Shown in pieces: positions 4,801-63,512 of a stretch of 64,000 nt of DNA. The first letter of the stretch is position 1. Each line of letters starts with the position of its first letter. A model generated the notes under the pieces. The model had not been told where the DNA came from. It did not search any database and worked only from the letters and a program-made list of their open reading frames with translations. The stretch lies in the IMG/VR virus record IMGVR_UViG_3300028591_000188, positions 8,386 to 72,385 of that record. The stretch is one strand, 5' to 3'. The DNA is from a virus (Duplodnaviria > Caudoviricetes). Position numbers and translations under genes: made by a program.

Positions 4801-7800
4801 TTAGTTAGATGAATCCCTTCCTTTAAATTATATAAGAGAAAGGGCTGTTTAGAATGGAGATTAGGATTTAGTTGATTATATAGATGTAAGAGATGATTAT
4901 CTTAACATTCTCAGTAAAAACATTAAAAATTTCTCTGAAGAAGACTTGGTAGAAGTATTTGAATCTATAAACGATAATCTTAGAAGAAAAGAAAACGGGC
5001 AGTTTATAAATACTACCAAGGATACAATGAGGGCTAGTACTGAAGGCTTTTTGCTGAAAAGACTATAGGATTTAAATGAAGAGAAAGATAATTCTAGTTC
5101 TCTTCCTTCAAAAATAAAACTAGACTAGTAGATATAGATAATAGAGGCAGTATTAGATGCTAAAAAGAATTCTGAAAAAGCAGAAGAGGGTTTTAGTAAA
5201 AACGTTGATTCAGAAGAAGGAGAAGAAGAAATTGAAAATGAGGAAGAAGAAGAACCTGTTGAAGGATTTGTTTTAACTGATAAAAATAGAAATTTTGCTA
5301 AAAGGTCACGTGCTGATGTAGAAGAAGAATTAAATGGTATTACTTCATTAGAATAGTTTGAGCAGGAAAAGAATAACTTTATTTTAGGCAATGGTATAGA
5401 AGACGAGTTTTATGAAGCATTAAATATAGTTGAAGATTCTTCACTTACTGAATCTTTAGACCCAAACGATTTAAAATGGGTTAAAGACCAAATTCTAAAA
5501 CTGCATGAACAATTGGCAAGACAACTTAAAGAAGAAGAAAAAGAAAATAATAGAAAAGGAAGAGTAAGTAATAAAGAAGAAGATGAAGGTAAGCCTGAAT
5601 TTGATTCACTTAATGATGAAGATGACTCTTCTTCAGATGACTCTTCTTCAGAAGATGGAGGACTTGATGACTATGAAAATGAAGACAATGATAGTGATTC
5701 TAAAGAACCTTCAACTTCAAACCTTGGATTTAGAAGTGGGGTTGTAGGAAAAACACCACAGACATCATAGTCCTCATAGACTGTCTAGGAATAGCCTAAG
5801 GAATCTCCAGTAATAACTACTGCAACAAAGATAATCAACCCTTAGAAAGAGCATAGAACAATCACTAACTCTGAAGGCAGTAATGCAGAAATAAAAAATA
5901 GAGGGAATGAAGATGCTTGGGCAGTTGGAAGAAAAGGTACAAAATGGGATTGGGAAGAACTTAAAAACTCAAGAAGAAAAGCTGAATTAAGAGAAGATAC
6001 TTGGGATGAATTTATTTGGAAAGGAAAAGGCAGAGAGTTTGTTGAAAACGGCGATTTAAATAGACTTTAGGAATATTGGGCAGAACATCATAATGGTTCT
6101 AAATTACCAATACGGTTTGTAAAGGTAGAATATGGAGGAAGTTTTGAAGGAGAAGGAGCAGAAAAATTTAAAAAAATGTATGGTACTTACTCAAATACTT
6201 TATTTGCTGCTGTAGAAATCCCTAATGGTTTTAAACCTTCAATTAAAATAGAAACTGCGTAGGTTACACCAGAAACAGGAAGTGATATTAATGTATTAAT
6301 ACTTGGAGAAATAACTTATTGTAGTGGAAATAAAGGTAATAATATAGACAATTGGAGAGCTTTAAATGCACAAATTAATAAGTCATTTAAAGAACTCAAA
6401 GAACGCAAAAGTAAACTTCCAAAGCCTTATGAATTAAGAATGTATACTCCAGACATAACAACCAATCTTGAATATATATTCTCTGGAAGAATGGTAAAAG
6501 AGATTGATGCTGTTGATAGAGAGAAAGCAGTAAGTTATGGAATTCATAATCTTGGCGATATTCTTACAGATGCAGAACAAAAACAACTAGACTAGGACTC
6601 AAAATATACTCCTTTTGAAATAGTTGTAAAAGCTGGTACATAGGAACTTGTTTTTGGTAATATAAAGGTTGAAAACCCAAAGATTAGAAACAAACAAAGT
6701 AGAATAGTACAACTGAATACATTTTCATCTGAACATAGAAGAGAAATGGGCAGTACTAAAGTAGGTAATGTTGGTACTGTATGGTTGAGAGTAATGGAAG
6801 CAGATGGAAATATCTATTACAAAGGAGTTAAGATTAATAGATTTGATGAAAATACAGATGATAATTCTCCTGTTGCTAAAAAGATACGCCAAATTATCCA
6901 TGATTTAGTAGAAAATAAAGATACAACTAAAGAAGACTGGAAGATTTATCTTGGAAGATTATCAAGATTCCTTTATACTTCTGCTGCAAAAAGTAATAGA
7001 ATGTTCCTACACTTAGAAGGAGAAAAGTTCTTCTAGATAGGTACTGATGAAGGTCCTGCAAGGAAAATAGCTATTCCTAATAAAGATGATGAAAACTATG
7101 AAGAATTAGCAGAAGAGGCAGAAAATGCTATATACCAAGCAATAAAGAATGAAGGATATAGATTTAATCTTGTTGCTGATAACTCAAGCACAAATGCTGT
7201 TGAAAATCTTTCATTATAGGATATAGTTGCTTCAAATATGATTTCAACTGATTTGGCTAGAGTACATAATGTTGGAGCATCTTTCTTAATAAGTCAATAT
7301 GTAACTGAGGAAGGAAAATTAGGCAAGGTTGTAGATTCTAAGATTGCAGAATAGTTAAGAACAAGAAAATTAATCCATACTGGAAGAAAGGATATTTACA
7401 ATGCTGAAGTAATTACTATGCCAATCCAATTAGATTATGGAGGCATGAAAGGTTACTACTTTAAAGGAATATTGGATGACGATAAAAAATATCATTTTTA
7501 TTAGTTAGAAAATGAAAACGACCCTATAGGAAAAGGTAAAGAAGTGGAAGACATGTTAACAGTAAAGCTTCTTACTACTAAGCTTTAGCTTGACTATTTA
7601 ATGAAGAATGAAAAACTTACATTAGAAGATTTAGCTAGAGGTATAGGAGAGAAAATAGGAGGAATAAAATATACATTTACTTATAAAGGTAAAAAGTTAA
7701 TATATACTCATATATATATTCCTATATCTGTTTCTAATAGAACAAGACCTGTATATATGGATGAAAATGGTAAAGTTATATATCCTGAAAGAAATAGAGA

Positions 7801-23590: not shown

Positions 23591-23598
23591 CAAAAATA
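23591..23598 (-). promoter_or_regulatory. Bacteroidetes sigma-type -7 promoter element (TAnnTTTG) upstream of the vRNAP gene
   Basis: Minus strand reads TATTTTTGCA about 20 nt upstream of ATG 23571, in the intergenic gap after a terminator. Confidence 0.55.
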
Positions 23599-24264: not shown

Positions 24265-24474
24265 TTAAAATCCAAATTTAGTAAATTCATAATTCTCTGA
24301 AACCATCCATTGACAATCATTCAGATTGAAGTTATATTTCTCTTCCAAACAATCAACAATAAATGTTTCAAAGTTATCATAATCATTCATTAACTCTTTA
24401 TCTTCTTTAGTTAATTTGATTACAATACATTCTGCTGTATTGTAATTTAATAGCCATAAATAATTATATTCCAT
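24265..24474 (-). CDS. Hypothetical protein
   Basis: Track ORF 24265..24507; likely start MEYNYLW at 24474. Confidence 0.55.
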   Translation of the reverse strand: MEYNYLWLLNYNTAECIVIKLTKEDKELMNDYDNFETFIVDCLEEKYNFNLNDCQWMVSENYEFTKFGF

Positions 24475-26723: not shown

Positions 26724-26767
26724 TTTATTAAGGTTTTAATATAATTCTTCTTTAATCATATTTATTT

Positions 26768-26998
26768 CTACATTTTTATGTATTTAAGATACTTTGTATA
26801 CAGCCATGTGTTAGCTTGAAAACAAGTATATTCATCACATTTTAAAGTAACTGGATTATTGTTTCTTCTTGCATTCAATACTTGATATACATCCCCCAAA
26901 TAAATTCTCTTACCATAAATATCAACCATTCCAGACCAATAAGATTCAGGTTTGTAATTTACCCACTTTTGGGTGGCTTTATCAAAATAAGTTTTCAT
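26768..26998 (-). CDS. Hypothetical protein, weak YopX-like core
   Basis: SGMVDIYGKRIYLGDV resembles the YopX TGLxDxNGKxIYEGDI pattern. Confidence 0.5.
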   Translation of the reverse strand: MKTYFDKATQKWVNYKPESYWSGMVDIYGKRIYLGDVYQVLNARRNNNPVTLKCDEYTCFQANTWLYTKYLKYIKM

Positions 26999-27315: not shown

Positions 27316-28414
27316 ATTTAGATGGATATTTCATTATTCCTTCCCATACACCAGCTTTCTCAAATTCTTGCTTGATAAGATTAGCTAACACAAGCATATC
27401 AGGATGAGGTTCTCCTGTCTTTCCAAACAACCTTTTATCAAACCAATCTCTCCAATCAGATTCAAAAGCTGTATATGCTATTTCAGATTTAGTTCCTAAT
27501 GGTAATACTTTTCTTGCTTGTTGAGGAGTCCAGCCTTTATCCAAAAGCATCATATAACTTTTTTCACAAGCAAGATTTGCAAAGAACCACCAATCTAAAG
27601 CATCCCATCTGTCAGTTCTATCATTGGAAATATCATCAGCAAAACCAACTAAGCCTTTATAGGTAGGAATTTCTTCTTCATTAACCCAAGATGGAATACC
27701 AACACTAATAGAATTATCATATTTTCCTTTTGAATAGTTACAATATCTTGTAGATTCTTCAGTAGGACTTAATACTCTATTTCTATTGCTCTCTCTCGTA
27801 ATATCAATACTTGTAGTAAGCTTTACAGTTAACCTCTTCTCATGGAATTCTGTTGGTTCACAAAGATATTTCAAATCATCAAGCCAACTATTCTCTTGAA
27901 GCACACGTAGATTTGTCGTAATATATGCTATATGTTCAAAATAAATTCCATCATCATCATATTTGTAATCATCACTTTCATCATATGATAATGATTTATT
28001 TTCATCAACATATGTTCTTTTTGTTGTTATTGGAGAACATCTTTTGTAAGTTGATTCAATATGGCACTTAGAATATTTATTATGATAATATTTAGACGCT
28101 TTTATTGAAGATTCATTTATTATATTAAACTCTTGGAATGGAGATGGAAGCTTATCATGGTCTACAATTTTACGCCACCAAGATTTACCATACGAATCTG
28201 ATATAAATGGAATTTTTAGATATATAGTCCCATGCTCGAGTACTGACCAGTGTTTGCTTTTGATAAGCATATCCACAAACTTCTTTGCAGAGTCATCAGT
28301 CATCTTATCCCAACTGAGATATGATGTTCTCCCAGCCAATTCTATTTGCTTATAAATACCGTCAATACCTGCTTGTTGAGGCAGGTATTGAGCAGATTGA
28401 TTAATTAGTTTCAT
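27308..28414 (-). CDS. thyX: FAD-dependent thymidylate synthase
   Basis: GHWSVLEH-type motif (KHWSVLEHG), RNRVLSPTEESTRYCNY (RHRxxSxxxxSxR-like) and AR.VLP (QARKVLPLG). Confidence 0.85.
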   Translation of the reverse strand: MKLINQSAQYLPQQAGIDGIYKQIELAGRTSYLSWDKMTDDSAKKFVDMLIKSKHWSVLEHGTIYLKIPFISDSYGKSWWRKIVDHDKLPSPFQEFNIINESSIKASKYYHNKYSKCHIESTYKRCSPITTKRTYVDENKSLSYDESDDYKYDDDGIYFEHIAYITTNLRVLQENSWLDDLKYLCEPTEFHEKRLTVKLTTSIDITRESNRNRVLSPTEESTRYCNYSKGKYDNSISVGIPSWVNEEEIPTYKGLVGFADDISNDRTDRWDALDWWFFANLACEKSYMMLLDKGWTPQQARKVLPLGTKSEIAYTAFESDWRDWFDKRLFGKTGEPHPDMLVLANLIKQEFEKAGVWEGIMKYPSKYD

Positions 28415-28700
28415 CTTTTTTATTATTTATATGTTCTATAAATTTCCAGTAAGTAGGAGTATTATACCTCCAACGCCAAGGAAATATATCCACTTTATCA
28501 GAATCAAGGTGAGTTGCACATCCATGATATCTGCTACCAATCCAATATTGTAATCCTATTTTATCATTTTGGTTATAGCATAGAATATTTCCTATATATC
28601 CACTATACTCCTCTTTTAACCCTCTATGAATTATCATTTCAGGAGAAGCAATATCCTCTGGCATTTCTCCTTGCCTACATTTATGCCATTTATAGTCCAT
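28401..28700 (-). CDS. Hypothetical protein
   Basis: Tiled ORF. Confidence 0.6.
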   Translation of the reverse strand: MDYKWHKCRQGEMPEDIASPEMIIHRGLKEEYSGYIGNILCYNQNDKIGLQYWIGSRYHGCATHLDSDKVDIFPWRWRYNTPTYWKFIEHINNKKDETN

Positions 28701-41733: not shown

Positions 41734-42182
41734 TTAACCCCTGTGTGTCCAAATCCCCCATCACCTCTATCAGTTGACTGTAATTCACCTACTTCTTCAA
41801 ACTCAGCTTTCTCCACCTTTGCAAACACCATTTGTGCAATTCTATCTCCATGATGCACAGTATAAGGCATATTAGAGGTGTTCAATAAACAAACTTTTAC
41901 TTCTCCACGATAGTCTGCATCTATTGTACCTGGAGTATTAAGAACAGTTATTCCATGTTTAGCTGCTAGCCCACTTCTTGGTCTTACTTGTCCTTCATAT
42001 CCTACTGGAATTTCCATACATATTCCTGTAGGAAATAGCCAAGATTCACCAGGATTTAAAGTATAGTGGGGATAACTATCCAAATAAGCACATAAATCTA
42101 CTCCAGAACTTCCTTCTGTAGCATATTGAGGCACTTTACTGTCCTCATATAATTTCTTTATTTTAACTTTGATATCTTTCAT
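41730..42182 (-). CDS. dut: Trimeric dUTPase
   Basis: GVDL, RSGLA, GTIDADYRGE, RIAQ and RGDGGFGHTG motifs. Confidence 0.95.
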   Translation of the reverse strand: MKDIKVKIKKLYEDSKVPQYATEGSSGVDLCAYLDSYPHYTLNPGESWLFPTGICMEIPVGYEGQVRPRSGLAAKHGITVLNTPGTIDADYRGEVKVCLLNTSNMPYTVHHGDRIAQMVFAKVEKAEFEEVGELQSTDRGDGGFGHTGVK

Positions 42183-42537
42183 AAAAATCTTCTAATCCTT
42201 TCTTATTTAAAATGTATAATTCAGCTTTGATTGTTTCCGTATTATCTGATATATCATACCAACTTGTAATATTAACATTTTGTATAAAAGCTTTTTCTTC
42301 AACAAATTTATGTAAAATTTGTCTATAGGCATAACCCCTTATTTTTTCAGCATATTCACTCCTGTATTCGTTTTCTGGAATTTTTATCACACAAGATAAC
42401 CTTATAAAATTTTCTAAAGTAAGATATTTTGGAATAATATATACTGTATCAGGCATTGGAAGTAAAGGGCTATAACCAAATTTACAAGCTAACTTAAACA
42501 ACCATTTGCTAAATTTATTGTTTGTTTTTAATTTCAT
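42163..42537 (-). CDS. Hypothetical protein
   Basis: Tiled ORF. Confidence 0.55.
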   Translation of the reverse strand: MKLKTNNKFSKWLFKLACKFGYSPLLPMPDTVYIIPKYLTLENFIRLSCVIKIPENEYRSEYAEKIRGYAYRQILHKFVEEKAFIQNVNITSWYDISDNTETIKAELYILNKKGLEDFYERYQS

Positions 42538-43024
42538 TTTCTAGCATTTCTATTTTATCATTAATATAGAATATTGCTTTTTTCAAATCTTCTATTGTTT
42601 TTTCATTATCAGTCATTGAACTATCTTTCTTATGTCCTGCTCTTAAGATATATTTCAATGCATTCCCCAAATCAAAGTCAAGATGTTTGCAAATGTCAAT
42701 TGGTTCTACACCACATAAATCTTTTAACCAAGTATAATGTGAAGGATGGTTTACATTATCACTAATATTAGAGGAAGCACAAGCAGAAGTACCAGCATTT
42801 GAAAAATAAGTTATTTCATTTGGAACATCTTTATCTGTAAAATACTTTTGGACATCTTCTTCATTAAAATAGTGTATTAATCCTGCATCATCAACTATTC
42901 CATAAATATGTCCTTCAGCATGTTCAAAATCTTTACTTATTATCCTATATAGATTTCCTTCGGTAAAACTTATTTTATTTAACCCTTTTGCAATACATCG
43001 TATTATAGACATTTCATCAAACAT
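42515..43024 (-). CDS. DUF3310-like protein with an N-terminal extension
   Basis: VNHPSHY...EPID...F.LGNALKYI.RAG.K...EDLKKA.FY pattern. Confidence 0.75.
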   Translation of the reverse strand: MFDEMSIIRCIAKGLNKISFTEGNLYRIISKDFEHAEGHIYGIVDDAGLIHYFNEEDVQKYFTDKDVPNEITYFSNAGTSACASSNISDNVNHPSHYTWLKDLCGVEPIDICKHLDFDLGNALKYILRAGHKKDSSMTDNEKTIEDLKKAIFYINDKIEMLENEIKNKQ

Positions 43025-43511
43025 TATTTTCTCCTTTCCAAAATTTATAAGTTATATCTTCAAATTTAACTGGCTTATCAGAAACCTTCTTATACATCCT
43101 TTGATTTGTTGTCTTCTCATTTAATGGCCCTAAAGATTCAATATAAGGACCAGTTTTAACATAATCAAACTCTTGAAATAATGGTTCATATATCAGGTGA
43201 TTAGATAAGTTGTAATCAAGTCCTGTATACCAAGCTGTTTTAAGATTATGTTTTAAATGTATCAGACTTGAAAGATAAGCAATATCAAATAACCTACCTC
43301 CTTCACCCATAAAGCATACACAAGTAATACCTTTATTATCCTCAATAAGTTTATCAAGAACTTCTGGAGTTAACCTTTCTCCCACATCTTCCTGCAAATA
43401 TGGAGAATGGCAATTGCTACACCTATGAGGGCAATTAGATATATTTATACATAGACTTATCTCATCAGGCACTTCACTGAAAGCTACTAATGTTTCTGTA
43501 TATTTAATCAT
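43017..43511 (-). CDS. nrdG: Anaerobic ribonucleotide reductase activase (radical SAM)
   Basis: CPHRCSNCH (CxxxCxxC) motif; adjacent to nrdD. Confidence 0.88.
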   Translation of the reverse strand: MIKYTETLVAFSEVPDEISLCINISNCPHRCSNCHSPYLQEDVGERLTPEVLDKLIEDNKGITCVCFMGEGGRLFDIAYLSSLIHLKHNLKTAWYTGLDYNLSNHLIYEPLFQEFDYVKTGPYIESLGPLNEKTTNQRMYKKVSDKPVKFEDITYKFWKGENNV

Positions 43512-43570
43512 GTATAATAAAAGCAGGAGTATTTCTACCCCTGCTTGTTTGTTCCTTTTCTATATTTGAA

Positions 43571-45808
43571 TTAGAGTTTAATATCTTCTTCTTTGGTGTA
43601 GACTCTAGTCTTTTGTTCTATCTGTCTACCTTTTGACCAATTGTCTACAGCAGTAAGATATCCAATTATTCGTGTCCAATATCTTATGTTATTAGAACCA
43701 CATATAGGACACTTATCTATTGGCGAATTCACTGTATGGCCACAATCCTTACATTCACTCATTGGGATATTGAAAGTAAAATAATTTGTACCATTTGCTA
43801 ATGCAAAATCCAGTATCTTAAGATACTGCTCTTTAGTCAAATGAGCATCCAAATTTACATGACAAGCTTGTCCTCCATCACTAAATTTGTTTATATCTTT
43901 CCCATGAAGAGCTAACTTATCTAATACTGATGTGTTATCCCAAGGATTATAAAAATAACAATTGTATAGATTTTGGTCTTCTGGAACATAATAACCATCC
44001 TTCTTATCTTTATCATAGAAACGAATGGCTGTTTGTTCCCCTGGAATACATTCACTATTGAATAAGAAGGGTCTTTTCTTATCTTTAATTGAATGTATTT
44101 TATTTTGTTCTTTGATAGTACCTAAAACAAGAGACAGAAACTTTTTATATTCTTCATTGTTAGAAGTTTCAATCCCTAAAAACTTTGCTGCTTCAAAATA
44201 TCCAATTACTCCTATGGTACTATATAGTTTTTTCATATAGATATATCCTGCATTTGAAGCAGTAAACATTCCTTTATCTTCATAATCATAAAGCATCGTT
44301 TTAAATGCAATATGATATTTATAGACTCGTTCAAGAATTTCAATTAAATCATTTTTCAAATAATCTAAAAACCTTCCATAAGTAGATATATATTGTGGTT
44401 GGTTATATTCTGACATACAATAATTATGCTTTCTAGCACAATCTTGAACAATTCTATTAATATTAAGAGTAATAACATTACAACTACCAGTCATAATACC
44501 AGTCATTCCTGTAGTTGAACTGAAAGTATTATCACTTATTTCATTCAAGACTCTACAACAACTAGCCAAAGATGAAGGATTATCACTATTATAGCAGAAG
44601 AAACTTCCTCCTTTAGCCCATTCTTCAGCACACAAATCTTTATATTCCTTGTCAAGGAATTCTTTATTGTTGTGTACTAAAGCAGTTGTTGACACAGGAA
44701 AAGTTAATGGTTTTATAAGTCTTAGTTCCCTATGTAATTCCATAAACATTCTTTGAAGAGTATCAATGGCTTTCCATTCAGGTTGAGTACCATCAGGATA
44801 ATAAAAGTCTCCAAATAAGGCATTGAAGTAGACAGAATCATAATAACTTACATTTGTAAATGGTGAATTATAACTCCTATTACCAGCTGGCTGATTTACT
44901 CCATATATAAACTGCTTCATTCCTTTACGAATGAAATATTTTATGTTATGGTCTTTCTTTAAGTTTTTGGTTACTATTTCATCCAATCTTTCATACCATT
45001 TTTCACCAAATTCAGAAACCACATAATAATTAAGGGCAACAAAGTAATCTCCAAGAGCTACAGCACCTTTACATTGGGAACTTAATAAAAATACAGCATT
45101 GGTAACTTGCCCACTAAAAGATTCAATATCATTAGGAGCAGAAGGAGTAACTTTATCAAGATTGCCTACACCTTCAGTCATTAATGGATATAATGTAACT
45201 GCCTCACAATAATACTTAAGTACTGGAGAAGAAGCTTCATCATGCACATAAATAATTCCATCTTTTAAATCTTGAGCATATTGAGAAGCTACTTCAGGAA
45301 ACATCTTATTAAGTTGTTCCTTCATTCTATACCTTTGAATGGCCCTATTTGTTTGTTTATAGACTTCTCCTTCAAGATTGGCAACATTCTTTGTAGTTAC
45401 ATTGGAATTTGCGTCTGTTTCACTTGCAGAAGCTGCATTGGTGTCAGAATTACTATATTCATTCATATAGTCAATTCTTTCTTTTAAGAATCTGACATTT
45501 TTATGCTCTGACCTATATAAGATATAGGCTTTTGCAGTCTTCTTAAGATTGAAATCCATTAATACATCTTCAACACAATCTTGAATAAACTCAATTCCAA
45601 CAGTATCTATATCAGTTGTAGGTTGCAACTTGTTTGCTCTCTCTTCAATTTCACATTGAATTTCCTTAACAAGGTCGTCAATGTCGAAGCATTGTGTTTT
45701 CCATTTAGGTTCGTTAACTTCGTTAAGGGCTTTTAAAAGTGCTGTTTTAATCTTCTCAACTTGATACTCTTGAATAGTACCATCTCTTTTCTTTACTTTC
45801 TTAATCAT
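43571..45808 (-). CDS. nrdD: Class III anaerobic ribonucleoside-triphosphate reductase
   Basis: N-terminal ATP cone (VKKRDG), finger-loop SCCR, Zn motif CKDC...CPIC and glycyl-radical motif TRIIGYL. Confidence 0.92.
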   Translation of the reverse strand: MIKKVKKRDGTIQEYQVEKIKTALLKALNEVNEPKWKTQCFDIDDLVKEIQCEIEERANKLQPTTDIDTVGIEFIQDCVEDVLMDFNLKKTAKAYILYRSEHKNVRFLKERIDYMNEYSNSDTNAASASETDANSNVTTKNVANLEGEVYKQTNRAIQRYRMKEQLNKMFPEVASQYAQDLKDGIIYVHDEASSPVLKYYCEAVTLYPLMTEGVGNLDKVTPSAPNDIESFSGQVTNAVFLLSSQCKGAVALGDYFVALNYYVVSEFGEKWYERLDEIVTKNLKKDHNIKYFIRKGMKQFIYGVNQPAGNRSYNSPFTNVSYYDSVYFNALFGDFYYPDGTQPEWKAIDTLQRMFMELHRELRLIKPLTFPVSTTALVHNNKEFLDKEYKDLCAEEWAKGGSFFCYNSDNPSSLASCCRVLNEISDNTFSSTTGMTGIMTGSCNVITLNINRIVQDCARKHNYCMSEYNQPQYISTYGRFLDYLKNDLIEILERVYKYHIAFKTMLYDYEDKGMFTASNAGYIYMKKLYSTIGVIGYFEAAKFLGIETSNNEEYKKFLSLVLGTIKEQNKIHSIKDKKRPFLFNSECIPGEQTAIRFYDKDKKDGYYVPEDQNLYNCYFYNPWDNTSVLDKLALHGKDINKFSDGGQACHVNLDAHLTKEQYLKILDFALANGTNYFTFNIPMSECKDCGHTVNSPIDKCPICGSNNIRYWTRIIGYLTAVDNWSKGRQIEQKTRVYTKEEDIKL

Positions 45809-45811
45809 ATG

Positions 45812-46834
45812 TTATTTATTTAACCATTCTATAATATCATTAGGCTCATCTACTTTTATTCCTACAGGCACTCTTGGCTTTTCATTAAGATAATACCAAA
45901 GTTCAGTTGCAAGTTTTCTCCAATTTGGTAATTTATATTCTCCATATTCACAATCTGTAATAGATTTGGTTCCCTTAAATTCCCAAACGAGAGGAGTTCT
46001 TGTACTATTACAAATCACTATAAACTGATAATCTGCAATCTTGAAATCCTTAAAATAATCATCTTTTTCAATATTTTGCTTGATTAGTTCATAATAGAGC
46101 TGAGCCTGCACAGCATAATTCCAAGCAATAAAACTCTTATAAAACTGATGTTCAGGATGTCCTGATGTTTTAAGGTCATAAGGATATATTACCTTATTCT
46201 CATAATCTACAATTATCAAATCAGCCATACATCTTAAAGGAATGTCCTCATATTCTCCTTTAAACTTCAATTGATAATAATGTTTGAGAGTGTCAGTATC
46301 TTCTCCAAATAATGATTCGGTATTAGGAGAAGTCTTTAAGATTCTTACACAATCAAAGGCATCATTATACTGCAACTGAGTAACAGGAGTCTTTCCATCT
46401 ATTCTCTTTAATTCATCATAATAAGGAGAACACTCTTTTATCTTCTTAACTCTTACATTATAATATTTTGCATCAGTATAATATCCACAGTTTACTGCCA
46501 CATCTGAAAGTATCTGGTCAGGAATGTCTTCTAAGGTATTATAATATCCTTTATATGTGTCATATAAAGTCTTTGTAATTTGCCTTAATGTATCACTTAA
46601 TCCAAAATCTTGAACTAATACAAATCTTTCATTGAATTCTTCAACACTTCCAGTAAGTAAAGTATCTACCATACTTCCAAAAATCAAAGAAGGAGTTTCT
46701 ATCTTTTCAAATAGTTTGCTTAATCCATCAAATCCTTCCCTTTCAAACCTGGATAATGTAGAATAAGATAGAGCAGAATCTGCCCTATATTCTTCTTCTG
46801 TAATATTTAATGCTATATCTTTTAATTCCTTCAT
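45812..46834 (-). CDS. PD-(D/E)XK exonuclease
   Basis: LSYSTL...GSMVD; RCMADL...YDLKT...YAVQAQLY. Confidence 0.75.
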   Translation of the reverse strand: MKELKDIALNITEEEYRADSALSYSTLSRFEREGFDGLSKLFEKIETPSLIFGSMVDTLLTGSVEEFNERFVLVQDFGLSDTLRQITKTLYDTYKGYYNTLEDIPDQILSDVAVNCGYYTDAKYYNVRVKKIKECSPYYDELKRIDGKTPVTQLQYNDAFDCVRILKTSPNTESLFGEDTDTLKHYYQLKFKGEYEDIPLRCMADLIIVDYENKVIYPYDLKTSGHPEHQFYKSFIAWNYAVQAQLYYELIKQNIEKDDYFKDFKIADYQFIVICNSTRTPLVWEFKGTKSITDCEYGEYKLPNWRKLATELWYYLNEKPRVPVGIKVDEPNDIIEWLNK

Positions 46835-47091
46835 ATATTAAATTCTTCGTCACAAAAATCACTGATATAACCATATCCGATAGGTTGTTCCTCTTCTTCA
46901 ATATCAGGTAAGGAATTAGCATTTGCATACTTTGCAACCATATCAGATAGTTCTCTAACCTTGAGTTCAAAAGACTCTACAATTTCCAATAGTCTTTCAA
47001 AATCTCTTTGTTCTATACACGTTTGACAAATCTTTCTGTCTTTTTCGGGCAGCAGTTTAAGCTGCTTCTAAATCTATTCCAACATTTTCAT
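46831..47091 (-). CDS. 86-aa hypothetical protein with two in-frame TAG codons (codons 6 and 8); missed by the standard-code track
   Basis: ATG 47091 overlaps the upstream TGA (ATGA). Reads MKMLE*I*KQLKLLPEKDRKICQTCIEQRDFERLLEIVES...EEFNI and ends at a TGA that overlaps the next ATG (46834). It fills the gap between the two genes exactly. Confidence 0.7.
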
Positions 47092-54305: not shown

Positions 54306-56079
54306 TTAAATGGCATAATATTTTCTGATTGTATCATCTACAAGTTTAAGACTATTAGGAATTTCAAACTTATCGAACATTCCAATAGGAGTCTTTGCAG
54401 ATGAATGGTTTGCTTTTGTTTGGAAATAATATCTATTATCTCCTTCATCACCATAATCCACTCTAGTCATAAAGACTATCGGATAGAATCCTTCTGGCTG
54501 TACTTTGGTTAGCTTTTTTCCAATAACACTGAAAACCATTTTTTCAGTGCCGTCTGATTGGGTTTGAAGCATTGTGTGACCCATAACATATACTATTTGG
54601 TCATTTCTTAGATTGTTACAAATTGAATTAAGTTCAATTACATCATTCGTTTTGTTACATACAAGCTCTTTATCTTGTACTCTCCTTCTTTCAAAGGAGT
54701 ATCGGACTATATCATCACTTTGTATCTCTACAAAGGCAGGGCACTCTTGTCTGATTTATTGTTTAAGCTACTCATCAGTTAGTCTCTGAACCTTCTACAT
54801 ACTTTTATGCTTTTCTGTAGCTTGGCTGCTGATTGGCATAGATAGCAAATCCTTAGCTTTCCAGCAATTCACCCTGTTTATTGTGGCCAATGATTTTATA
54901 ATTCATTTCAGGACATACAAATTCTTTTATAATATCTACAAACTTGTTATAGTCTTTTTGTATTAAATACAATATTTCTTTATCTTTATTTTTATGTATA
55001 TGTACAGTAAGACCAAAATTCTTAATCATCATATCTTGTAATTTAAGTTGACTATTATGATTAAAACCGTTTGTACTAAAGTAAGCTCCTGTTGGATGAT
55101 GTATTGCTCCATCATCCATATACCATATAGCTAATCCTATAGGACCTAATTCATATATAGTATCTGGAACTTCTTTCTTGGGATTATACCAATCTTCTCT
55201 ATATTTATTAAAAGATTGGTTTACTTTGGTAACTATTTGACAATATCCATTGTCTTTAATAATTCTTCCATTTATTATTCCGTTTCTGTAAGAATTTGTA
55301 CGTTCACTATACTTAACGTGAAGTCCACTTTGTTCAAACAGTTTATACTTATGTAATACATATTGTTTTTGAACTAGACTGTGCCTTACTACCAAAATAC
55401 AATTTGTTCTCTTTCTTATTATAGAACCATCTCCTAACATTGAACCTAAAATAAGTTGATTTGCCATAGGAGATATTTCTATAGGAGGTTGAGTACATAA
55501 TATTTTGTTTCTTAAGGCAAGTTTCTCTGAAAAAGAGAAAGTTTTAATATTTTCTCTTTCAATAAAATCTCTCATATCTTTGAGAGGTTCATTAAACATT
55601 GTAGATAAATTACAAACTGTTAATTCTGGGTTTTCTTCTAATTTTGCTAAAATTAAATCTTTGTCCAACATATTTTTATAATTAAAGTTGGTGCAAAGAT
55701 ACGAAAAATATTTTAATTATGCAATAGCCACATCACGCCACTGGTCGAAACTAAGCTTTTTCCTTTCATTAAATTCCTTCATTGACAAATAAATATTGAT
55801 TGTATCAATGGCAATGGATTTAATGTTTTCTTGTTTTGAACAATAGTCCAACCACTTCTTGATGTCAGCAAAATCCTTTGGTTCACAATAATTATGCTTC
55901 TCTTTACTCCACATTCCAGCAGGAAAAGGCAAAGCCTTGCCATCTAGATTCATAATAAAATGACTATCAGGATTCATTCCTTGATAATTCTTAGGGTCAT
56001 ATTTACCATCTGGCCCTATAATAGTAGAAGTTGACTTGCCGTCACCACTACTTCCTAAAATTGCTACTAATACTGACAT
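54306..56079 (-). CDS. AAA-family (AAA_24/Sak4-like) ATPase, spliced: join(56079..55726, 54647..54306), ~231 aa
   Basis: Walker A GSSGDGKST and Walker B IAIDT. Splicing gives a continuous ...DQWRDVA|NDVIELNSICNNLRNDQIVYVMGH. Confidence 0.8.
54853..55671 (-). CDS. Intron-encoded LAGLIDADG homing endonuclease (two-motif type) with an N-terminal extension
   Basis: Motifs LILGSMLGDG and LAIWYMDDG. Confidence 0.88.
   Translation of the reverse strand: MLDKDLILAKLEENPELTVCNLSTMFNEPLKDMRDFIERENIKTFSFSEKLALRNKILCTQPPIEISPMANQLILGSMLGDGSIIRKRTNCILVVRHSLVQKQYVLHKYKLFEQSGLHVKYSERTNSYRNGIINGRIIKDNGYCQIVTKVNQSFNKYREDWYNPKKEVPDTIYELGPIGLAIWYMDDGAIHHPTGAYFSTNGFNHNSQLKLQDMMIKNFGLTVHIHKNKDKEILYLIQKDYNKFVDIIKEFVCPEMNYKIIGHNKQGELLES
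55694..55725 (-). promoter_or_regulatory. Bacteroidetes-type promoter for the LAGLIDADG gene, inside the intron
   Basis: ATTG-N20-TATCTTTGCA, 22 nt upstream of ATG 55671. Confidence 0.65.
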
Positions 56080-58286
56080 TTAACTTGTTTTTACTTTAAA
56101 TATATTTAATTTCTTAAACCAACTAAACAAAGTAGTCTCTACTTTCTTTGGTTTATCTAAACTCTCTGCATACTTATAAACTTTCTCAAGTTCTGCTTTA
56201 TTATCAGGCAATGGCATTTCAAAGAAACTACAAGTTGCTCCATCAAAGAATAATGGACATATTCCTCCTAGCTCACCATCACGGTTTACTACAACTTCTA
56301 AGAATCTAATATGGTCTTTAAGTCTTCTGATATCATATCCCATGTACTCAGGAAGACTGTATTTATAAGGATTAAACAAACCAAATAATACATTTTGGTC
56401 TTTCTGTGTATAGGTCGAATCAGCCAAGCCAGCTCCAGATGGCCTAATTCTTCCAAGTTTTACACTATCATTGCTTTCTCCTGAGGTATTCTGTTGTTGA
56501 ATTACAATAGAGGTAAATCCATATCTATTTCTTAAATATTTTGCAAGATATTCACTTGTCTTGTCTATTGCCTCCTTTTTATTCATTCCTCTCTCCAAAT
56601 CTATGATTCCTATATGGTCCAATACAATAATTCTATATTCTGTTGGATCATTAGGTTCATAATAGTCAAAGATTTCAGTATCTGAATATTCTACTTTTTT
56701 CTTATACACAGTACCATTGGCTTCAGCATAATTTCGGCACTCCTTTAATATCTTACTACTATAAGTTTCCTTACCTATTTAAAATAGTTTGTAGTCTGGA
56801 CTATGTCTTCATCCTGTTAGGATGTACCTGCATTTAGTCTCTAGGGCTGAATCTATACTCAAGGTATAGCCTATGCCTCCTCAAGTTGCCATGCACTTTT
56901 CAGTGTTTAGGTTTCGAGGATATTCAGGTATTATAATTTTATAAATTACTTCATAAAACGGCATTAGATTGTAAGCATGGGTAAGAATAGACAATCCCAT
57001 CCTCTTCTAAAATAAAATTTTGAGATTGTGCTAATCTTTCCTTTAGCTTCTTTATTTTATGTGTGTTTGCTCTTCCTTTGTCATATATGTTTCCTTTGCT
57101 ATCATACATTAATATTCTTTTTATTTTTATTTTTCTATAAAAATTAAGCAAGTCTTCTTTTGTTTTATCAATATCCATTACTATAAATAATCCTGTTTTC
57201 CAAAGTACAAATCCGTCATTATTTTTTAATATTGTATTAAAATAATGATAATCTTTTGCTCCCACATATTCTGCTGCTTTTTTAATAGAAACATTTTGTA
57301 AATGGGAATTTCCTAGATAATCATAAACTTTATACTTTTTTCCACAGTCTAGTCTTGGATTTTTATAACCGTTTTGATATAGAAGTTTTGTAGATTTTGA
57401 AATCTTATTTCTCCATTCTTCACTACATTCGTGCATCTCTGGAGTAGCACAATTGAATTCTGGATGAAATTGTTCTATATAAATATATTCTAATGTTCTT
57501 AGAATGGTTTCATTATAATCATTTAATATAGCCAAAACTTCAAATTTTAACGATTTCTCTCCATATTTATTATAACAGTGTTGTAGATAAGGAGAATGGT
57601 GGGTACCTCTTCTTAATTCAGATAAGTGTACTCTCCATCTATCTGTAATATTAACTGAAGACCCTATATAAGACACATTGTTTTCTATACATGTTATCTT
57701 ATAAATACCCGCTTTTAAATAATACTAATTATCTGCTTTCATATAAAAATTTTCTGCAAAGATACATAAAAAAGTTCAAATACACAAACTTCCAATCCAT
57801 TTTACCTGTTGGGTTAGCTGTGCTACTAAACACAAAAGACTCTTCAAAAGCATCAAAATATTTTTTATATTCTTCACTTTCAAGCTTATCAATTATTTCA
57901 ATTGGTAATGGGGAATCATTTCTTGTGCTTCTTAGATTCTGAGGAGAAATTCTTATCTTGTCAACTCTCGCTAATATCCAACTTTGAAACCTATTCATTA
58001 TTTTTTCATCTGTCTCTTCAAAATTATAGAAGAACACTCTTAATTTGAGCTGGCTTGGGTGTTCTATTGCATATACTAGAGCCTCAAATAAAAGATTTAG
58101 AGTAAATTGAGTTTTGGAACCCTTGGTATAACTTGTGATACCATAATATACACCCTGCTCTAATCCTGGAAAGTCATAAGAAAATCTCTTAAATGGAGAA
58201 GGAATACTATTAATCTTACCATCAAGAAGGTTTTGTCTTCTCTTCTTAAGATTAGTTATTGCTCTTTGTACTAAACCTTCACTCAT
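56080..58286 (-). CDS. dnaB: DnaB-family replicative helicase, spliced: join(58286..57804, 56751..56080), ~384 aa
   Basis: Walker A-like TSYTKGSKT, FYNFEE, Walker B IIVLDHI, VIQQQN and V..NRDG. Splicing gives ...ANPTG|ILKECRNYAE.... Start at an ATGA overlap (58286). Confidence 0.82.
56951..57742 (-). CDS. Intron-encoded GIY-YIG homing endonuclease (~263 aa) with TAG at codon 6
   Basis: Extending the track ORF upstream gives MKADN*YYLKAGIYKITCIENNVSYIGSSVNI..RW..H...E..YI......N, a complete GIY-YIG domain. The TAG is at 57725-57727. Confidence 0.85.
57757..57788 (-). promoter_or_regulatory. Bacteroidetes-type promoter for the GIY-YIG gene, inside the intron
   Basis: TTTG-N20-TATCTTTGCA matches the -33/-7 consensus; 14 nt upstream of ATG 57742. 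Confidence 0.7.
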
Positions 58287-58855
58287 ACCAAATGTGTCTG
58301 CCATAAATTATTGTCTAAATCCTCTTGTCCTTCATTAGTTATGTAAGACATAAAATCCGACCTTAATTCTCCAGTAGATGGGTCCTTCTTAAGAATAAAA
58401 TACTTCAGTAACTGCATATATGTATAGTCTCCATTGAAGGATTCAATATACTTTTTTGCTGCTCGTACTGCTTGTTCTTTTGTAAAATTGAACACATACT
58501 TGTTTTTAAGAGTTTTTAGCTTTTGTGCTATAATAGCAGTACTATCCTTCCAATAATAAGCTGTTCCTGGTTTTTTACCATCAGGAAATACTGCTCTTAA
58601 GGCATCTGCAACGTCATAAAACCATTTTTCATCTATAGTTACAGATTGTTGAAGTAATACTGATACTAATAAATCCTCCTTTCCTTCTGTTATAGCACTG
58701 AATTCTCCTTCTTTAATTTCTGCTAATCCATTATCTATTAACTCTTTTTCAATCTCTTTTATGTCACACCCTTTAGCATATAGAAACCAATAAAGACATT
58801 CTGCAATATGAATTTTATATTTCTCAAGTATTGCATCATCAATTGTTATCTTCAT
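58283..58855 (-). CDS. Hypothetical replication-module protein upstream of dnaB
   Basis: Tiled ORF with ATGA coupling to dnaB. Confidence 0.6.
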   Translation of the reverse strand: MKITIDDAILEKYKIHIAECLYWFLYAKGCDIKEIEKELIDNGLAEIKEGEFSAITEGKEDLLVSVLLQQSVTIDEKWFYDVADALRAVFPDGKKPGTAYYWKDSTAIIAQKLKTLKNKYVFNFTKEQAVRAAKKYIESFNGDYTYMQLLKYFILKKDPSTGELRSDFMSYITNEGQEDLDNNLWQTHLV

Positions 58856-63151: not shown

Positions 63152-63191
63152 TATTAATTATTTAATGTTAGTAAATTCAAATAAAATAAAA

Positions 63192-63221
63192 AGGGATAAT
63201 ACTCTTGGCAGTATTATCCCT
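63192..63221 (-). terminator. Intrinsic terminator at the end of the tRNA cluster
   Basis: 11-bp stem AGGGATAATAC/GTATTATCCCT followed on the minus strand by a T-tract. Confidence 0.75.
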
Positions 63222-63313
63222 AAAAATAAACCTTTAAAATACAAATTATGAAACACAACAGAAGTATCACTACTTTCCAAGATAGTGATAACACTTAAAA
63301 AACACAAGAATAG

Positions 63314-63436
63314 GGAGGTGTGCCAGACTCGAACTGACATTTCTGGAACCAAAAATCCAATATTAAAATAATTGCAGTAATACTTCCATTTACAGAAGTA
63401 ATTAATAAGCGTCCTACCAATTAGACGAACACCTCC
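63314..63436 (-). tRNA. tRNA with a 49-nt insert (63360-63408) between the D arm and anticodon arm; His-like G-1:C73 body, 8-nt loop TTTTTGGT (Gln/His-like); possibly a pseudogene
   Basis: Acceptor GGAGGTGT/ACACCTCC, D arm GTCT-AATTGGTA-GGAC, T arm GTCAG-TTCGAGT-CTGGC. Removing the insert gives a perfect CTGGA/TCCAG anticodon stem. Confidence 0.6.
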
Positions 63437-63438
63437 AG

Positions 63439-63512
63439 TGGTCCCCCTGGGACTTGAACCCAGAACCTAGTGATTATGAGTCACTTGCTCTAACCAATTG
63501 CGCTAAGGGACC
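63439..63512 (-). tRNA. tRNA with CAU anticodon, Ile2-type (lysidine-modified, would read AUA)
   Basis: Full cloverleaf GGTCCCT...AGTGA-CTCATAA-TCACT...GGTTCAAGTCC...GGGGACC-A. Acceptor and anticodon context resemble bacterial tRNA-Ile2 more than tRNA-Met. Confidence 0.85.

Follow-up and report, generated by a model that had tools for sequence, protein, structure and literature searches.

A GIY-YIG homing endonuclease gene with a codon-6 TAG in the dnaB intron of a TAG-recoded crAss-like phage, and its possible dependence on amber suppression

Introduction

The intron open reading frames (ORFs) of bacteriophage T4 are reportedly read from middle and late promoters and silenced on early transcripts by hairpins that sequester the ribosome-binding site (RBS). 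For the TGA-recoded Agate phages, Borges et al. (2021, bioRxiv) described a group I intron endonuclease, located in an early gene, that was preferentially recoded, and proposed that its in-frame stops should block endonuclease production until late infection. Stops that need suppression were also found in the intron and intein ORFs of the Zeta group of crAss-like phages (Yutin et al. 2021, PMC7886860). Here, a GIY-YIG homing endonuclease gene with a single in-frame TAG at codon 6, placed within a group I intron of a DnaB-like helicase gene, is described in a stretch of DNA (hereafter, the window) that comprises the last 64 kb of the 72,385-base virus contig of IMG/VR record IMGVR_UViG_3300028591_000188. 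This contig was counted as incomplete because its relatives measure 118-128 kb.

The nearest named phages were the Steigviridae cr128_1 and cr111_1, with ~45% identity in the SNF2-type helicase. It is likely, as part of the best explanation of the locus, that the phage is a Steigviridae-related crAss-like phage in which TAG is decoded as glutamine in the late phase. The explanation as a whole, which we hold with good though not full confidence, is that an I-TevI-like endonuclease in a mobile intron carries a sense TAG at codon 6, would be made only under amber suppression, and acts as a late gene housed within an early one.

The endonuclease gene and its codon-6 TAG

The locus is organized as follows; the positions of the dnaB-intron endonuclease, its promoter and the dnaB exons are all given on the minus strand of the window.

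57804..58304, minus strand: exon 1 of the DnaB-like helicase gene (167 codons, no TAG)
56752..57803, minus strand: group I intron (1052 nucleotides (nt), with U as the last base of the 5′ exon and G as that of the intron)
56951..57742, minus strand: GIY-YIG homing endonuclease ORF (P0001; 263 codons with TAG read as Gln; stop codon TGA)
57742-57740, minus strand: start codon ATG, then AAA GCA GAT AAT TAG TAT TAT TTA AAA GCG GGT ATT TAT
57725..57727, minus strand: in-frame TAG, codon 6, conserved in the relatives L003-L006
57674..57676, minus strand: GTG, codon 23, the first canonical start past the TAG (241-residue ORF, 56951-57676)
56778..56965, minus strand: ribozyme core (P3-P9; RF00028), downstream of the endonuclease ORF
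56080..56751, minus strand: exon 2 of the DnaB-like helicase gene (TAG-free; 223 codons and the stop)

The predicted protein matched the Pfam GIY-YIG domain (PF01541) over residues 11-94, with 40.3 bits (cut-off 22.6) and an E value of 3.9e-10, and the I-TevI structures 1MK0/1LN0 at E 2e-8, residues 1-87 of I-TevI corresponding to residues 9-97. GIY-YIG enzymes depend on catalytic Tyr, Tyr, Arg, His, Glu and Asn residues, whose roles are known from the literature; in the window's protein, Y14, Y25, R35, H39, E85 and N97 are present, and they were invariant or nearly so in 15 homologues, with the catalytic residues aligning to Y6, Y17, R27, H31 and E75 of I-TevI. Residues 100-263 were also conserved within the family, and the C-terminal 165 residues matched no Pfam module. 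Since Met1 of I-TevI aligns with Leu9, the TAG belongs to an N-terminal extension of 8 residues that is not part of the fold. This extension is present in all full-length homologues, which have a 12-residue N-terminus in common, and position 6 is occupied in them by D, E, K, N or S.

Relatives of the gene were scarce in IMG/VR, in which a direct scan with the endonuclease protein found none and scans with the endonuclease alignment found few close ones. The comparison was made with L003 (a JGI assembly) and with L004, L005 and L006 (Logan assemblies), which are independent and come from other samples. Relative to these four, the ratio of nonsynonymous to synonymous divergence (dN/dS) was 0.08-0.19 with dS of up to 0.57, and the TAG was kept in all four. 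The identical codon in four independent assemblies excludes a sequencing error, which the original prediction had named as one way in which it could fail. Codons 1-22 differed in three places only: codon 4, which precedes the TAG (GAT/GAC), codon 11 (GCG/GCA) and codon 19 (ATA/GTA, I/V). The low dN/dS, the intact catalytic residues and these codon-level changes together indicate that the gene is functional in its TAG-bearing form and that selection acts on the frame which opens at the ATG and reads through the TAG, in agreement with the earlier proposal of an intact GIY-YIG homing endonuclease.

It had also been pointed out that the TAG at codon 6 is followed by no ATG or GTG before the GIY motif. 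This was confirmed on the minus strand, where TTG is likewise absent between the TAG and the motif (codons 12-14). The ORF that the standard code allows, from the GTG at 57676, does cut the catalytic motif as proposed: its 241-residue product would be devoid of the first β-strand and of the GIY tyrosine. In a 90% protein cluster of 14 members, 12 were called as this 241-residue GTG form, 2 as the 263-residue form (only with TAG read as Q) and 1 as a 194-residue fragment. As a deduction from this arrangement of start codons, production of the full-length enzyme should need amber suppression.

The dnaB intron and its mobility

The location of the gene in a dnaB intron was borne out by the gap-free alignment of the conceptually spliced 390-residue protein, over the junction (…STANPTG/ILKEC…), to the uninterrupted dnaB of the relative L191, with 94% nucleotide identity; the spliced helicase was also collinear with DnaB of cr128_1. 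The intron is inserted at the NPTG/I codons, with the exon-exon junction reading CCAACAGGT / ATATTAAAG, and the junction first put forward, AACCCAACAGGT / ATATTAAAG, turned out to be exact. That dnaB alleles of 94% identity may have or lack the intron points to an element that is mobile, now or recently.

The dnaB intron as a whole escaped Rfam both at the gathering threshold and when positions 56600-58000 were searched at E <= 10. Only the isolated 3′ core was matched, as the 199 nt past the endonuclease stop hit RF00028 with 31.5 bits (E 1.3e-6; model positions 18-253). This match lies below the gathering score of 50 and is cut at its 5′ side because the endonuclease ORF replaces the 5′ part of the element.

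At the junction, the intron-less allele (L191:250-280) and the window (57790-57804 / 56737-56751) encode the same protein and show five synonymous differences within 15 nt, against an overall divergence of 6%. The codons read CCA ACA GGT/ATA TTA in the interrupted allele and CCC ACT GGA/ATT CTG in the intron-less one, and the last exon base is A, not U, in the L191 dnaB. These differences could reflect target-site resistance to cleavage or constraints of the exon-guide pairing. The same NPTG/ site is occupied in G001, a related complete genome of IMG/VR (102,529 bases; TAG-recoded, crAss-like), at 43354-44030 by a decayed GIY-YIG gene that is frameshifted and truncated and has TAGs at codons 40 and 95. 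Its N-terminal half lies in one frame and its C-terminal remnant in another, and its candidacy as a second functional TAG-bearing endonuclease at this site was ruled out by the frameshift and the truncation.

Reassignment of TAG to glutamine

The longest ORF grew from 747 to >3400 codons once TAG was read as sense, and TAG usage was found to differ between the two gene classes:

83-23571: four late ORFs, 7800 codons, with 183 TAG (46% of Gln codons), 170 CAA and 48 CAG
Minus strand: 59 early genes, endonucleases excluded, 11,593 codons, with 0 TAG, 274 CAA and 71 CAG

None of the 345 early Gln codons in these 59 genes is a TAG. The pattern is that of mixed coding, in which long conserved late ORFs are open only when TAG is sense and the early genes are TAG-free. 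The claim that the surrounding replication genes have no TAG holds for these 59 early genes and fails for the ORF at 46831-47091, which has TAGs at codons 6 and 8. TAG corresponded to Gln at both positions that could be checked, which are two only: codon 6 of this small ORF, where TAG in the window is replaced by CAA/CAG in L191, and the RWRqHL segment in G001 (q representing TAG), which aligns with RWRQHL in homologues.

Some features at the borders of this recoding were also observed. Early genes that end in TAG (26762-26998 on the minus strand; L191:13869-14834; several in G001) have a TAA or TGA 1-6 codons further on, or the TAG is doubled, which fits back-up stops for a phase of TAG read-through; all other early genes of the window end in TAA or TGA. 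N-terminal TAGs in several G001 early genes and in the window ORFs 42163-42561 and 63158-63484 were discarded as artefacts of ORFs extended upstream of the true start. A tRNA-like sequence at 63313-63435 on the minus strand has good acceptor, D and T arms and an interrupted anticodon region; ARAGORN in intron mode assigned to it the anticodon UUA with a 36-nt insert, so that it is not a CUA suppressor. The adjoining repeats at 63.6-63.96 kb gave no match in Rfam.

Predicted promoter and probable transcriptional class

Upstream of the endonuclease ATG, an exact match to the Bacteroidota sigma-A-type promoter consensus was found, and related boxes were located elsewhere in the genome:

57757..57788, minus strand: TTTG-N20-TATCTTTG, exact consensus match, ending 14 nt before the ATG
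57757-57764, minus strand: -7 box of the GIY-YIG intron endonuclease
55701-55694, minus strand: TATCTTTG box before the LAGLIDADG intron endonuclease
23591..23598, minus strand: TATTTTTG -7 box before a TAG-rich late operon, 19 nt before a 3419-codon late ORF with 65 TAGs
Genome position 4835 (ORF): TAnnTTTGCA box before the second TAG-rich late operon
24376: box upstream of a gene that starts at 24320 and lies at the early block's late end

The complete consensus TTTG-N20-TATCTTTG has 6 occurrences in the window where 1.79 would be expected; of these, the match at 57788-57757 alone is correctly placed, and the transcript start that it predicts leaves the ATG at 57742 as the first start codon. 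In nine diverged homologues, too, the endonuclease ATG is preceded at a distance of 20-35 nt by a TAnnTTTG box, within surrounding sequence that differs. Intergenic TAnnTTTGCA boxes are confined to few sites in the genome, and those of G001 precede late genes, the gene adjoining the suppressor tRNA, and the decayed endonuclease. Across the window, L190 and L191, boxes of this -7 type were observed before 4 of the 5 intron endonucleases examined and before the TAG-rich late operons, and not before ordinary early genes.

In the crAss-like phage phi14:2, the virion RNA polymerase (RNAP) reads the early genes, which share no motif, and the host RNAP reads the middle and late genes from sigma-type promoters. 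The distribution of boxes suggests that the host RNAP transcribes the intron endonucleases as late-class genes. The host-type promoter of the original prediction is present as a perfect Bacteroidota-type consensus, and its type is that of the late operons rather than that of early genes. Folding of the 5′ part of the intron revealed no structure that hides the ATG, the region being less structured than shuffled controls (z = +1.26).

Other intron endonucleases and TAG-bearing early ORFs

Two further loci of the window bear on the question of which early-block genes contain TAG:

54853..55671, minus strand: LAGLIDADG endonuclease in a second group I intron (Sak4/AAA_24 gene), no TAG
46831..47091, minus strand: 86-codon ORF of the early block, with TAG at codon 6 (47076-47074) and codon 8 (47070-47068)

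Pooled over three genomes, in-frame TAGs were found in 2/5 intron endonucleases and in 1/60 other early genes (Fisher p = 0.014). The second TAG-bearing endonuclease is the LAGLIDADG_3 enzyme of L191, with TAGs at codons 11 (the first), 50 and 114; those with no internal TAG are the neighbouring LAGLIDADG enzyme of the window, LAGLIDADG_3 in L190 and the NrdD-intron GIY-YIG enzyme in L191. A group I intron (RF00028, 80.8 bits) with a LAGLIDADG_2 endonuclease splits the Sak4/AAA_24 gene (window 54585-55716), which is uninterrupted in L004:11660-12466, so the Sak4 intron is polymorphic too.

The ORF at 46831-47091 gave no Pfam match. It overlaps its upstream neighbour by ATGA, has no later start and has 37 database relatives, and it encodes a real conserved protein. 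Its codon-8 TAG is kept in relatives of 79-99% identity and in L190 and L191, and codon 6 is Lys, CAA/CAG-Gln or TAG.

Discussion

Under the standard code of the host, ribosomes would stop on the endonuclease message after five residues (MKADN), since no start is usable other than the one that precedes the TAG; with active amber suppression, the full-length nuclease would be made. The same deduction supports the earlier expectation that the element would be silent in a standard-code phage. From its own predicted host-RNAP promoter of the late-operon type, the endonuclease would behave as a late gene inside an early gene, and a TAG would be tolerated because of this late-gene behaviour. The codon would additionally silence translation from the early helicase pre-mRNA, on which it would be the sole visible translation block, no ATG-hiding hairpin having been seen there. 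The original prediction had the enzyme awaiting amber suppression; the position of the usable start and the sense reading of TAG in late genes agree with this, and we infer that its timing is probably transcriptional as well.

A stop codon at such a position might be evaded, or might mark a gene that no longer matters. Initiation past the TAG, at ATT or ATA near the GIY motif or at GTG 57676, could give an active enzyme without suppression, given that Met1 of I-TevI aligns with Leu9, the first 8 residues being dispensable for the fold, and that the Ile of GIY is encoded by ATT. We judge this to be very improbable, since no ATG, GTG or TTG precedes the motif, the product from GTG loses the GIY tyrosine together with the first β-strand, translation from the ATG accords with the codon-4 synonymous change and with the conservation of residues 1-11, and the ATG is the first start codon on the predicted transcript. 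A dead gene or an assembly error is scarcely credible: homing endonuclease genes often decay, as did the frameshifted G001 copy at the same site, but here dN/dS is ~0.1 over dS of up to 0.57, the catalytic residues are intact and the TAG recurs in five independent assemblies. How the TAG came to be kept is a different matter, on which two accounts compete. It may be maintained by selection so that a nuclease with toxic potential stays silent before the code switch, thereby replacing the RBS-sequestering hairpins of T4, a proposal that we regard as tentative and, on balance, doubtful. It draws on the fixation of the TAG in a clade with dS of up to 0.57 in a gene under purifying selection, on a stop at codon 6 wasting least and leaving no truncated domain, on the lack of visible hairpin control, on the enrichment of TAG in intron endonucleases given above, on the codon-8 TAG kept by the ORF at 46831-47091 together with the codon-11 position of the first TAG in the L191 LAGLIDADG_3 gene, and on the published parallel in the Agate phages. 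The TAG could instead be a neutral passenger without a regulatory role, in which a chance change from Glu, Lys or Gln to TAG, in a tolerant N-terminal tail of a gene expressed only late from its own promoter, was never purged. This we consider a serious possibility that nevertheless falls somewhat short of an even chance. The D/E/K/N/S variation at position 6, the location of the TAG in the 8-residue extension absent from I-TevI, the late type of the promoter, an endonuclease TAG share lying between the early-gene and late-gene values, and the gain of TAGs by the degenerate G001 copy all agree with it. The early helicase pre-mRNA, however, contains the ORF as well, and on it the TAG would block translation whatever the origin of the codon, and the N-terminal clustering of early-block TAGs is unlike uniform drift, an observation that is post hoc and based on small numbers.

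Several observations weigh against a TAG that was selected as the switch of the gene. The endonuclease has 1 TAG and 7 CAA among its Gln codons, compared with a TAG share of 46% in late genes, so that the preferential recoding of the Agate case is not seen, and neutral drift, too, would leave a lone TAG in a variable extension beyond the catalytic fold. The position itself tolerates substitution. No TAG occurs in the homologues of 41-60% identity found at this intron site (their contigs, including the 31-kb G002, comprise early modules only), and internal TAGs are absent from 3 of the 5 intron endonucleases of the phage group. With five sequences, a TAG that has one synonymous neighbour and dN of ~0.05, one codon kept by descent is expected, and selection and descent are inseparable. 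The late timing of the endonuclease is probably transcriptional, because the box is of the late-operon type and the host-RNAP promoters of phi14:2 drive middle and late genes; the predicted promoter would already supply the timing, leaving the TAG at most as a second layer. Against the preferred explanation of the locus as a whole, no tRNA with the anticodon CUA was found in the incomplete 72,385-base contig, which yielded only tRNA-Met and the doubtful tRNA-like sequence, and the search of L004 returned only tRNA-Ile and no CUA suppressor; the related complete genome G001 does have a tRNA(CUA), at 28407-28480. The gate is a real logical consequence of the codon, and selection for it is unproven. 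That a selfish element adopted the alternative code as a timer, the central claim of the original prediction, was not shown, given the 1/8 TAG share, the variable extension, the TAG-free homologues and the three TAG-free endonucleases.

A broader form of selection was also considered, in which N-terminal amber codons are a recurrent translational lock for a few genes embedded in the standard-code early module. Such genes would go untranslated on the early transcripts of the virion RNAP and would be made only after the code switch; the candidates are the GIY-YIG endonuclease (codon 6), the relative's LAGLIDADG_3 (codons 11, 50 and 114) and the 86-residue protein (codon 8). This generalization is speculative, and we think it rather unlikely. 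If true, the amber lock would be a code-based counterpart of the hairpin control of T4, combined with late-type host-RNAP promoters. Under the preferred explanation of a late gene housed within an early one, the promoter type shared by the intron endonucleases and the TAG-coded late operons connects tolerance of recoded stops with transcriptional class, and a TAG-bearing endonuclease would be locked to recoded phages, which should limit the spread of the intron into standard-code crAss-like phages.

Comparison with known systems

The endonuclease resembles I-TevI and the other intron endonucleases of T4 (td, nrdB, sunY) in its GIY-YIG domain, in an ORF that loops out from the group I intron of a DNA-metabolism gene, and in having its own late-class promoter, here predicted, inside the intron. 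It differs from T4 in that no sequestering hairpin was detected, so that a sense-recoded stop would do the hairpin's job, and from I-TevI in that its C-terminal 165 residues match no I-TevI DNA-binding module in Pfam and that the host gene is dnaB.

Among crAss-like phages, the dnaB intron of Kehishuvirus (cr112_1, PhiCrAssBcn18) is likewise a group I intron in a replicative helicase gene with a GIY-YIG endonuclease. The two cores are about 80% identical over about 180 nt (L001:2488-2667, L002:2488-2671). However, the Kehishuvirus endonuclease is only about 31% identical to that of the window, and its coding sequence is annotated as a complete standard-code ORF. The possibility that both represent the same insertion was rejected, as the dnaB site differs, the NPTG/I codons being uninterrupted in Kehishuvirus. 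A core of ~80% identity at a different site with an endonuclease of ~31% identity suggests that ribozyme and endonuclease have been exchanged as separate modules. In the Zeta group, PolB exons and intron ORFs are both recoded, with many TGAs (PMC7886860), whereas here the exons are TAG-free and the endonuclease alone has a TAG.

The closest parallel is the Agate case (Borges et al. 2021), which also involves an intron endonuclease with a recoded stop inside an early standard-code gene of a stop-recoded gut phage. There, TGA is reassigned to Trp and the endonuclease is preferentially recoded; here, TAG is reassigned to Gln in a crAss-like phage and a single TAG, at codon 6, is found among 8 Gln codons. 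The delay by code had been presented in the original prediction as a different and new mechanism, and the same had been proposed for the TGA-recoded Agate phages. With a single gene, a lone TAG at codon 6, an intron-less target allele found in nature (L191) and close relatives, the locus offers a clean example for testing the published idea that stop-codon recoding in phages times protein production. The gating idea is already in the literature, and the present case is a TAG, crAss-like instance of it with a single N-terminal codon.

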